A stretch of 64,000 nucleotides of DNA from Escherichia coli (GCF_003334405.1 NZ_QOWM01000015.1); one strand, 5' to 3'. Counted from the first letter of the stretch, positions 43,167 through 44,310 are shown. Program-made: numbers and translations. The notes: generated from the sequence alone by a model not told the origin.

Positions 43167-43730
43167 TTAAAATGGAATGCCGTCTGCAGGATTTCGTCTT
43201 CTGGAGTTTTTAACTGATTTTGTTTTACTCCAGGCACGATAAAAATTAAACGAATTGGCAAAATCTTCTGTCTCCAGTCTGGATTTTCTGAATTTATCCA
43301 TCAGATCTTCATTGAAACGACGAGGAATTCCCTTAACGCACAAGTTTGAATTCAGATATACCTGATTATCTATGGTGTCACGAATAAGTATTTTTTTTCC
43401 AAATAACTCTTTGAATGCACGTGAAACATTTGATTTATTCAGCCCAAGCTCTTTGGCAGTACGTGACTGTGAAAAATCAGGAATAATATTACCGTAATCA
43501 ATGGCTGAGAAGAGATAAATCACAATTCTAAATGCTGTAGGCGTCAAATCCATTCTGGCGAGTGTCGCCATATTACCTTTAAATACCATTGAGAAATCGT
43601 CCTTGAAGGACGTCTTTTTATAGCTGGTTGCTTTAATTTTTATTTCTTCTAGATCTTCGGGCATAACCTCTAATGCTTCTGCAATAATGGATTTTTGTTC
43701 TTTAGTTAATACAACACTTGTGATTGACAT
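43167..43730 (-). CDS. HTH DNA-binding protein (possible Rep-like or regulatory protein)
   Basis: 187-aa ORF with a helix-turn-helix-like segment TAKELGLNKSNVSRAFKEL. Confidence 0.5.
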   Translation of the reverse strand: MSITSVVLTKEQKSIIAEALEVMPEDLEEIKIKATSYKKTSFKDDFSMVFKGNMATLARMDLTPTAFRIVIYLFSAIDYGNIIPDFSQSRTAKELGLNKSNVSRAFKELFGKKILIRDTIDNQVYLNSNLCVKGIPRRFNEDLMDKFRKSRLETEDFANSFNFYRAWSKTKSVKNSRRRNPADGIPF

Positions 43731-44179
43731 AATGGCTCCTTTTTTATTGTTGTGATTACAGACATGGCATATTTAATTTATTTGTCAATGGTTTTGATGA
43801 TATTATTTTAATTATATCTTATTTGAATTTTTTATCCGTTCTTTGGTGGTGGTAATAGGTTGTAAAATTTGAAACGAGGGGTGCTAAATTTAACCATCAC
43901 CTGTTATGTGATTGATAATTTTTGGTGCTGAAATTAACAACGGCATATTTTGTATAATCATATGATTTTATTAGATAATTTTTGATTTTGATCTGCAAGA
44001 TAAAAGAGTGATAAAGAAATAAGAAACCACAGTTTTGCATTTGATCGATACTCAAGGCCTTGGTGTACCTGATGAAAACATTTTTATTATTGCTTTTCTT
44101 AAATAATATCATTTGTAAATTGAAGCCTGCGCAACTGTGTGTTACGCCCCATTGGGCTTCAGAACATCACTATAGTGTT

Positions 44180-44310
44180 TTCAGTCAGTATAAATACGCT
44201 TCGCGCACGAGTTCACAGTATTTAGGTTTACTGTCATTAAAAATACGCTTCGTGCAGAAGTTCAGAAAAATGGGGTTAGCTGTCAGCACAAATACGCTTC
44301 GCGCAAAAAA
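44180..44310. repeat. three iteron-like direct repeats with core AAATACGCTTCG(C/T)GCA
   Basis: Core copies at ~44192-44209, ~44235-44252 and ~44291-44308, each preceded by a TCAG-containing motif. Confidence 0.6.

Follow-up and report, generated by a model that had tools for sequence, protein, structure and literature searches.

A 49-bp repeat array upstream of a pHW126-type rep gene in an Escherichia coli genomic island: a possible accessory set of Rep-binding sites

We analysed a stretch of 64,000 nucleotides of Escherichia coli DNA (GCF_003334405.1, NZ_QOWM01000015.1; hereafter the window), which contains a chromosomal island carrying rep (43167-43730, minus strand), a gene for a 187-aa winged-helix protein (Rep187) of the pHW126/pIGMS31 (RepL-related) plasmid initiator family. 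Upstream of rep, three head-to-tail 49-bp units are found at 44172-44318, each of which holds a 16-bp core. Our tentative reading of the sequence, held with somewhat less than even confidence, is that these units are an accessory array of Rep-binding control sites. Each unit would offer one sequence-specific protein-binding site, the 16-bp core TGCGCGAAGCGTATTT, together with a TGACAG element, and the binder would most likely be the island's own initiator, Rep187. The control repeats would keep Rep bound, titrate it or bring origins together in pairs, and would thereby determine the extent to which the excised island replicates, while the units themselves would not be replication start sites. 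Three points are inferred here: binding of the core by a protein, the identity of that protein as Rep, and an effect of the binding on copy number or on rep expression.

An asymmetric site repeated directly, with spacers that have diverged, is what initiator-binding repeats usually look like, and incA of P1 and incC of F are established, non-essential control arrays. Accessory binding of Rep appears to be the best single explanation of the array because the units follow the rep/ori module from one island to another, because they go with one clade of Rep proteins and with residue 98 of Rep, and because DNA upstream of CR, a conserved block of pHW126-type origins, causes incompatibility in pHW126 and pIGRK. 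In these two plasmids it is the DNA upstream of CR (ssi/CR) that exerts incompatibility, that is, titration in trans, and RepM, the initiator of pIGMS31, recognizes several origin segments that are dissimilar, with a preference for the operators over IT and CR (bioRxiv 10.1101/2022.12.05.519187).

The repeat array and its conservation in related islands

The core reads AAATACGCTTCG(C/T)GCA on the plus strand and TGCRCGAAGCGTATTT on the strand of rep. On the plus strand, AAATACGCTTCGCGCA is present at 44192-44207 and again at 44290-44305, and AAATACGCTTCGTGCA at 44241-44256. Sequence and repeat searches divided the array, in the sense of rep (minus strand), into a proximal unit (44172-44220), a middle unit (44221-44269) and a distal unit (44270-44318). 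The proximal core (44192-44207) and the distal core (44290-44305) are both TGCGCGAAGCGTATTT, the proximal one containing the heptamer GCGAAGC, and the middle core (44241-44256) is TGCACGAAGCGTATTT, with one substitution. The three copies that the initial annotation of the window had pointed out are real, since perfect matches to the core pattern start at 44192, 44241 and 44290 and are the only ones in the 64 kb; with up to 3 mismatches, 5 matches were obtained (1.7 expected). Their spacing, which had been put at about 45-55 bp, is exactly 49 bp. In fact, the repeat search gave three 36-nt copies with spacings of 49 and 49, and Tandem Repeats Finder reported a period of 49 with 2.6 copies (score 139, 44177-44305). 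The TCAG that was said to precede every copy is present before two of the three; the sequences in front of the cores are CAGTCAG, CTGTCAT or CTGTCAG, the one without TCAG being CTGTCAT, and the common element is CTGTCA. Moreover, the array is not adjacent to the helix-turn-helix gene, as had been proposed, the cores being located 462-577 bp from the rep start codon (43730). The consensus of 25 distinct units, on the rep-sense (minus) strand, is TGAa-N4-TGCGCGAAGCGTATTT-N-TacTGACAG-N-tAA; the core is non-palindromic, and the unit also carries the TGACAG element.

Related islands of E. coli, Citrobacter, Salmonella and other genera have the array at this position too. Sixteen related loci have the core, the 49-bp period and a proximal core placed 465-485 bp upstream of rep, and the distance to CR is likewise fixed. 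The number of cores ranges from one to three: three in several E. coli, in two Citrobacter-group loci and in Salmonella enterica, two in others, and one in Superficieibacter. The distal, middle and proximal unit types are each 86-90% alike between loci (E. coli, Citrobacter, Salmonella), as compared to only 61-71% for the units inside one locus, and loci with two copies miss either the middle or the distal type. By this comparison the units are old paralogues, each type retaining its position as an orthologue in the different genera. In 31 units from the 16 loci, the 16-bp core differs by one base at most. Among the 25 distinct units, conservation reaches at least 80% at each of the 16 core positions, the upstream TGA and the downstream TGACAG are also kept, and the remainder of the unit is variable. 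A core that is nearly invariant while the units around it have diverged to 61-71% argues that it is under selection in every copy, and this pattern of conservation excludes a recent, neutral duplication.

Absence of the repeats from homologous islands, a possibility raised in the initial annotation, holds only for part of them: the repeats are present in the 16 loci just described, and no core was detected, even when 4 mismatches were allowed, in six loci of sister clades from Yersinia, Cronobacter, Klebsiella and S. enterica subsp. diarizonae. Since these sister clades have the same CR and the same Rep recognition helix as the loci with cores, the array should be considered accessory to the replicon. 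Two Citrobacter loci (L011 and L013) are informative in this respect. They contain the integrase module that is otherwise found beside mutS, a Rep 93-95% identical to that of the window, and 2-3 cores; neither AlpA nor DUF6387 genes were found in them within 6 kb and, as regards the AlpA homologue, in the whole 12.5-kb locus. The combination of the mutS integration module with an E. coli-type rep/ori bearing 2-3 cores indicates that modules have been shuffled between island lineages, and the array travels with the rep/ori module when this happens. In the Rep tree, all loci with cores fall into one clade. It is set apart by, among others, residue 98, immediately before the recognition helix, which is N or C in this clade and Q or H in the others. 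A search of IMG/VR for the core returned 12 single matches, about what is due to chance by our estimate, and one locus of the same island type. In PLSDB, neither the array nor the GC-rich block that adjoins it gave any blastn match.

The initiator protein and the origin region

The suggestion that the helix-turn-helix protein is Rep-like is borne out by full-length homology to initiators of the pHW126 family, including RepM. Rep187 is 36-47% identical to the initiators of the pHW126/pIGMS31 family and 36-40% identical to RepM; the alignment is full-length and the helix-turn-helix segment is invariant. Initiators of this kind are the main or sole protein of plasmids of 2.5-2.9 kb. In tblastn searches of plasmids, homologues with 44-47% identity over 91-95% of Rep187 were obtained on circular plasmids of 2.6-2.9 kb from Klebsiella, Enterobacter, E. 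coli, Citrobacter and Serratia. On the three plasmids examined, the homologue is the only annotated protein or stands beside a single mobilization protein. The match to pIGMS31 (NC_011406.1) has 40.5% identity over residues 31-161 (E = 1e-21). Pfam gave weak matches to HTH_36 (E = 0.0019), phage replication protein O and Rep3_N, and NCBIfam gave none; one relative is annotated as RepL, and some close relatives carry the Pfam RepL domain (PF05732). No phage matches were found. The AlphaFold2 model, with pLDDT block means mostly of 79-94 over residues 61-130, has an H-H-H-strand-strand topology. Its best Foldseek matches are MarR-family proteins, although weak (E ~4e-3), and a sequence search of solved structures also gave weak MarR matches only. 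This MarR-like winged-helix fold agrees with the description of RepM.

Among PLSDB plasmids, none carries an island-type Rep with more than 47% identity, with the exception of one 3.7-kb linear Salmonella record. This record (L005, OX345049.1, labelled 'plasmid: 132' in a Salmonella assembly), whose island-type Rep is 66.8% identical, is probably an unplaced contig and should not be taken to show that a free replicon exists.

RepM of pIGMS31, a pHW126-like replicon, has been shown experimentally to be the initiator. In the module of such replicons, an ssi-like palindrome and CR come first, four 20-bp iteron-like repeats (IT1-4) and the inverted-repeat (IR/DR) operators next, and rep last; RepM nicks just upstream of CR, and ssi is dispensable, its loss raising copy number and causing multimers (bioRxiv 10.1101/2022.12.05.519187). 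Further sources on the family deal with pIGRK (PMC6854812) and pHW126 (PMC2831885). In the island, the order toward rep is a GC-rich block with hairpins, the 49-bp units, a hairpin, an AT-rich stretch, CR, an AT-rich zone with candidate Rep sites, the rep promoter and rep. All this is contained in a non-coding region of 1,039 bp between rep and a conserved gene on the plus strand (44770-45195), divergent from rep, which codes for a 141-aa protein with no assigned function. The initial annotation had taken this gene as a 163-aa reading frame, which would start with TTG at 44704; in RefSeq it has 141 aa, from the ATG at 44770. Just upstream of it, in a stretch with 19% GC, an 18-bp tandem repeat (TATATATGAAGAATAAAA, 2.2 copies) is present at 44658-44696.

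CR (GGTTTCTTATTTCTTTATCACTCTTTTATCTTGCA) is located at 43995-44033, minus strand, with the core GGTTTCTTATTTCTT at 44014-44028. This GGTTTCTTATTTCTT lies 298 bp before the rep ATG and is the sole match in the 64 kb, as compared to 0.04 expected. In all of the 20 island loci compared, the CR block is 275-302 bp before the rep ATG, being invariant in 16 and showing 1-2 substitutions in the other four. Plasmids L006 and L007 have GGTTTCTTCTTTCTTATT at 291-292 bp upstream of the rep ATG, with four 21-22-bp iterons (ATTATGAAAATCATAAT) coming after it. The homology of Rep and a CR at matching distance indicate that the island carries the rep-plus-CR module of the family. For the same reason replication of the island after excision, as suggested in the initial annotation, is a reasonable proposal.

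The leader and promoter of rep (43731-43800, minus strand) include a ribosome-binding site (AAAAGGAG), a conserved TTGACA at 43783-43788 and the near-palindrome ATATGCCATGT at 43762-43772, and are kept in all aligned island lineages. The near-palindrome may, by inference only, be a candidate Rep operator. The -10 element of this promoter is poor. An AT-rich zone (43890-43994, minus strand) occupies the position of IT1-4 of the plasmids and contains the palindrome AATCATATGATT (43956-43967) and two copies of CAAAAATTATC. No array of four 22-bp repeats was found in 43731-43994, only isolated AT-rich motifs. Four 20-22-bp iterons are located between CR and rep in L006, L007, L008 and pIGMS31. A sensitive blastn search aligned 43904-44026 of the window colinearly with the iteron and CR region of plasmid L006, with E = 4e-5 in a small search. 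The AT-rich stretch as a whole (43700-44075, 26-31% GC) starts about 100 bp from the array, with a hairpin in between. This imperfect 39-nt hairpin (44122-44160, GAAGCC..GCGCAAC-loop-GTTGCGC..GGCTTC) has the position of the ssi-like palindrome of the plasmids and is kept in every lineage, but shares no sequence similarity with the plasmids' palindromes. It shows one compensatory change from C:G to T:A (GAAGTC/GACTTC) in the clade of Cronobacter, Klebsiella and S. enterica subsp. diarizonae, besides G:T variants, and is unlikely to be a terminator, because no T-run comes after it.

On the other side of the array, all island lineages from E. coli to Yersinia share a conserved non-coding block with about 50% GC (44330-44560). 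It contains three small hairpins, at 44376-44387 (CGGC-N4-GCCG), 44416-44450 and 44527-44537, whose stems are kept while the loops vary. At 44520-44537, a mini-hairpin on the minus strand is followed by ACTGGCTTA, which is also present in the bom region of ColE1. The block is a candidate region for single-strand initiation or for a transfer origin. A coding function was ruled out, given that indels among the variants shift the frame. The predicted single-stranded DNA structure of the block as a whole was no better than that of shuffled sequences. In 43700-44800, Rfam gave no match with E up to 5, and a scan for DnaA and IHF sites gave two DnaA-box matches with one mismatch and no IHF consensus, none of them convincing.

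The island therefore resembles the plasmids pHW126, pIGRK and pIGMS31 in the homology of Rep, in its MarR-like winged helix, in a CR about 290-300 bp before the ATG, in the position of a conserved palindrome upstream of CR and in the pairing with a mobilization module. It differs from them in that four tandem 20-22-bp iterons between CR and rep are missing, and in that 49-bp units, a long hairpin and a 230-bp GC-rich block, which no plasmid in PLSDB shares, are present upstream of CR. In addition, the replicon of the island is integrated in the chromosome and has an integrase, whereas the plasmids are free and 2.5-3 kb long, and the relaxase is of the MOB_P type and not MOB_V. Since Rep homology, winged helix and CR distance agree and IT1-4 do not, we consider the module an island-borne variant and not a plain member of the family.

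Possible functions of the 49-bp units

The initial annotation had proposed that the repeats are origin iterons or, alternatively, multi-site operators. The first proposal does not fit the data: the period is wrong (49 bp instead of 20-22 bp), the place is wrong (distal to CR and the hairpin), the repeats are GC-rich, and they are absent from sister clades. Classical origin iterons are at least three direct repeats of 17-22 bp, spaced by about two helical turns beside an AT-rich unwinding element, and the array, with a 16-bp core and a period of 49 bp, differs from them. Operator or control sites, judged from the sequence, are the most likely class of function. Control arrays of the incA (P1) and incC (F) type are similar to what we observe in that they are direct repeats of an asymmetric initiator site, outside the minimal origin and dispensable, with variable number and spacing, although in the island the binding is putative. 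In contrast to the island, their initiators belong to the Rep_3/RepA family and their control repeats have the sequence of the origin iterons, whereas no copy of the core is present in the island's origin.

Several observations weigh against accessory binding of Rep as the function of the units. The 49-bp period, unlike that of the family's 20-22-bp iterons, is not a whole number of helical turns, and the array lies beyond CR as seen from rep, not between CR and rep like the iterons of the plasmids. Plasmids of 2.6-2.8 kb whose Rep has the same recognition helix (SNVSRAFKELF) have AT-rich palindromic iterons (ATTATGAAAATCATAAT), and AT-rich motifs resembling them occur at the homologous place in the island, but the sequence of the core is GC-rich. 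Finally, the copy number varies from 1 to 3, and the six loci without cores retain CR, the hairpin, the GC-rich block and the Rep recognition helix (KSNVSRAFKEL).

The units might instead be sites for another regulator, such as the AlpA-like protein, the 141-aa protein, an activator from a helper plasmid or a host factor, placed in weak promoter-like units directed toward the origin and rep, and would then link replication to induction; we regard this as possible but unlikely. The core of the proximal unit is flanked, in all loci that have this unit, by a -35-like xTGAAC and a -10-like TATACT (spacer of 18 nt); in the middle unit, the -10-like position is taken by TTTAAT, TGTAAT or TAAAAT. Yet the promoter scores of the units are at most 8/12, the distal unit has no -10, and a consensus scan found no promoter at the units. 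The poor -10 of the rep promoter counts in favour of such a regulator, as does the AlpA-like gene, which is 1.4 kb from rep in the window and is present in most core-bearing loci. The binding element of Pseudomonas aeruginosa AlpA (alpB and PA0807 promoters; PMC7969949), an asymmetric element of about 15 bp, likewise sits between -35 and -10, and the window has a gene of the AlpA family; however, its sequence is unrelated, the island's hexamers are weak, or missing in one unit type, and there are core loci without an alpA-like gene. A link to AlpA was favoured at first, when cores seemed to be confined to clades with AlpA and DUF6387, and was broken by the two Citrobacter loci described above, in which 2-3 cores occur with neither gene within 6 kb. 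Besides, since the core is found nowhere else in the island, the putative regulator would have no other targets there.

A role of the units as single-stranded DNA seems rather improbable. According to it, GCGAAGC mini-hairpins in an ssi/sso-like zone would prime the lagging strand or limit multimers after rolling-circle replication or transfer. GCGAAGC/GCGNAGC and GCGNNAGC are described as DNA mini-hairpins in PMC13037366, GCGAAGC being a hyper-stable one, and all three cores carry the motif on the rep-sense strand; the GC-rich block has two more, GCGTGAGC on that strand and GCGTAGC on the opposite one. The dispensable ssi-like element of the pHW126-family plasmids, whose loss leads to multimers, is also upstream of CR, and the ssi region of pIGMS31 has, on the rep-sense strand, two copies of CCCGGAACGGG 45 nt apart and one GCGAAGC. 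On the other hand, conservation reaches well past the mini-hairpin (GTATTT, TGACAG), the middle unit of the window (GCACGAAGCG) and one Salmonella unit (GCGCGGAGCG) change the motif without compensation, and the sister clades have no cores. Furthermore, the predicted single-strand folding of the array region is no better than that of shuffled sequences (z = -0.27 and +0.51), although the energy model may undervalue GNA loops. A role of the units in the relaxosome, as accessory sites for the MobC/NikA-like protein or the relaxase within a transfer origin in the same intergenic region, is very unlikely. Upstream of the mobC-like gene, conservation is poor (45% mean identity) and no shared element resembling a transfer origin was found, and the GC-rich block next to the array, conserved in all lineages, contains ACTGGCTTA as in the ColE1 bom region. 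However, the similarity to the ColE1 transfer origin is at the level of chance (122 of 300 shuffles reach its score), no nick-site consensus was identified, and clades with homologous relaxase and MobC-like genes have no cores. A functionless tandem duplication, produced by slippage or unequal crossing-over, is hardly credible: the copy number of 1-3, the two-copy loci without the middle or the distal unit and the clades without any unit would be compatible with it, but the flanks have diverged to 61-71% while the core is nearly invariant in every copy and lineage, and the units are positional orthologues across genera. A terminator was rejected as well: a scan flags TGCGCGAAGCGTA with TTTGTGCT, but the stem has 5 pairs (3 of them G-C) and the conservation exceeds what a terminator needs.

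A further scenario may be put forward as doubtful but possible. One clade would have added a control element not described before, consisting of 1-3 tandem 49-bp units with an invariant 16-bp site and a hyper-stable GCGAAGC mini-hairpin, to a pHW126-type hybrid (rolling-circle/theta) replicon domesticated by a family of enterobacterial integrative mobilizable elements; this element would act as a Rep-titrating brake on copy number or as a strand-specific signal, read only while the excised or transferred island is single-stranded. If this is true, it would be the physical state of the DNA that gates replication of the island, in place of a classical iteron origin.

In pIGMS31 (L009), other repeats were also observed upstream of CR, at 2143-2241: besides the CCCGGAACGGG pair and GCGAAGC, the sequence GCGGTAG(G/C)GAAA occurs twice, 60 nt apart. 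These repeats are on the rep-sense strand, near the mapped RepM nick (2268/2269), and the preprint text consulted does not mention them.

The island, its relatives and their biology

The window is E. coli chromosome, with tRNA-Arg genes, MicA, a tRNA at 32300 and the tmRNA at 60595-60957. The tRNA at 32300 has a CAU anticodon and is annotated in RefSeq as tRNA-Ile; we take it to be ileY. The array-bearing island sits between this tRNA and ssrA. The region is carried by 147 of the 5,426 complete E. coli genomes, and is chromosomal in every case; NCTC9100 and MRE162 are examples of carrier strains. The conserved gene order is a MobC/NikA-like gene, a MOB_P-type relaxase gene, three small genes, the 141-aa gene, the 1-kb non-coding region and rep. 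Two mobilization genes belong to the same element as rep, both on the minus strand: the relaxase gene (46581-47810) and the gene for the 135-aa MobC/NikA-like accessory protein (47807-48214). The relaxase contains a run of proline-valine dipeptides (PVPVPVPVPVPVP), which varies in length by locus, being longer in L016, and looks like a slippage-prone linker. After rep, E. coli, Salmonella enterica and Superficieibacter have an AlpA-like gene (41575-41781 in the window) and a DUF6387 gene. Cronobacter, Yersinia, Klebsiella, S. enterica subsp. diarizonae and two Citrobacter loci have instead, directly after rep or past 1-2 other genes, a gene for a 191-194-aa protein and a 485-503-aa tyrosine integrase adjoining mutS. 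To judge from the relaxase, the MobC-like protein and the integrase, the island is an integrative mobilizable element built on the small-plasmid replicon backbone of the pHW126 family.

Beside mutS, the element is compact, of about 10 kb, and comprises rep, the 1-kb non-coding region and the 141-aa gene, with relaxase and MobC-like genes in most loci. It was seen in L013, L011, L018, L019, L022, L023, L037 and L039 (rep at 6001 or 7001, depending on the locus), flanked by the 485-503-aa tyrosine integrase and the 191-194-aa protein. In the window, the remainder of the island on the ssrA side extends over 51509-60572. It contains a pair of genes for 704-aa and 301-aa proteins with weak matches only (Hailong HalA and a small alarmone-synthetase-like GTP diphosphokinase), which could be a candidate defence system, two adjoining 298-aa ParB-like proteins and a 520-aa large serine recombinase. 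A 457-aa P4-type integrase is immediately beside the tmRNA. In islands of the AlpA/DUF6387 type, ankyrin-repeat proteins, 1-3 per island, always accompany the mobilization module (48416-49369 in the window; L002, L003, L004, L020), and the variable cargo includes SIR2, a type I restriction system and Kiwa (KwaA/KwaB) genes. A nuclease/UvrD-helicase pair, in our reading Gabija-like in appearance, is also among the cargo of the islands.

SaPI/PICI elements, with their ori iterons, and SGI1, with its oriV/rep, are similar to this island in being chromosomal islands with their own initiator and a repeat-containing origin that is used after excision, as may be the case here, and many members have an AlpA-type regulator. 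Unlike theirs, the initiator of this island is a small winged-helix protein of the RepL/pHW126 type and not a primase-helicase or a RepA-type protein, no link to a helper phage was seen, and the island is mobilizable by conjugation. In the literature that could be covered, which is incomplete, no paper mentioning pHW126-type plasmids was found to link them to genomic islands.

Taken alone, the repeats are a modest result, namely a conserved accessory cis-element with a putative binding partner. The pHW126 family consists of poorly understood small plasmids with initiators that can be assigned neither to the rolling-circle nor to the theta class, and the same Rep-plus-CR unit appears to be the replication core of chromosomal mobilizable islands, many of which carry defence cargo. 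These islands use two integration settings, the ileY-ssrA hotspot in E. coli and the site beside mutS in Cronobacter, Yersinia, Klebsiella, Citrobacter and S. enterica subsp. diarizonae. The module gives a concrete, testable origin for the replication of the islands after excision, and the natural series of loci with 0, 1, 2 or 3 units may be used for probing the role of the sequences upstream of CR.

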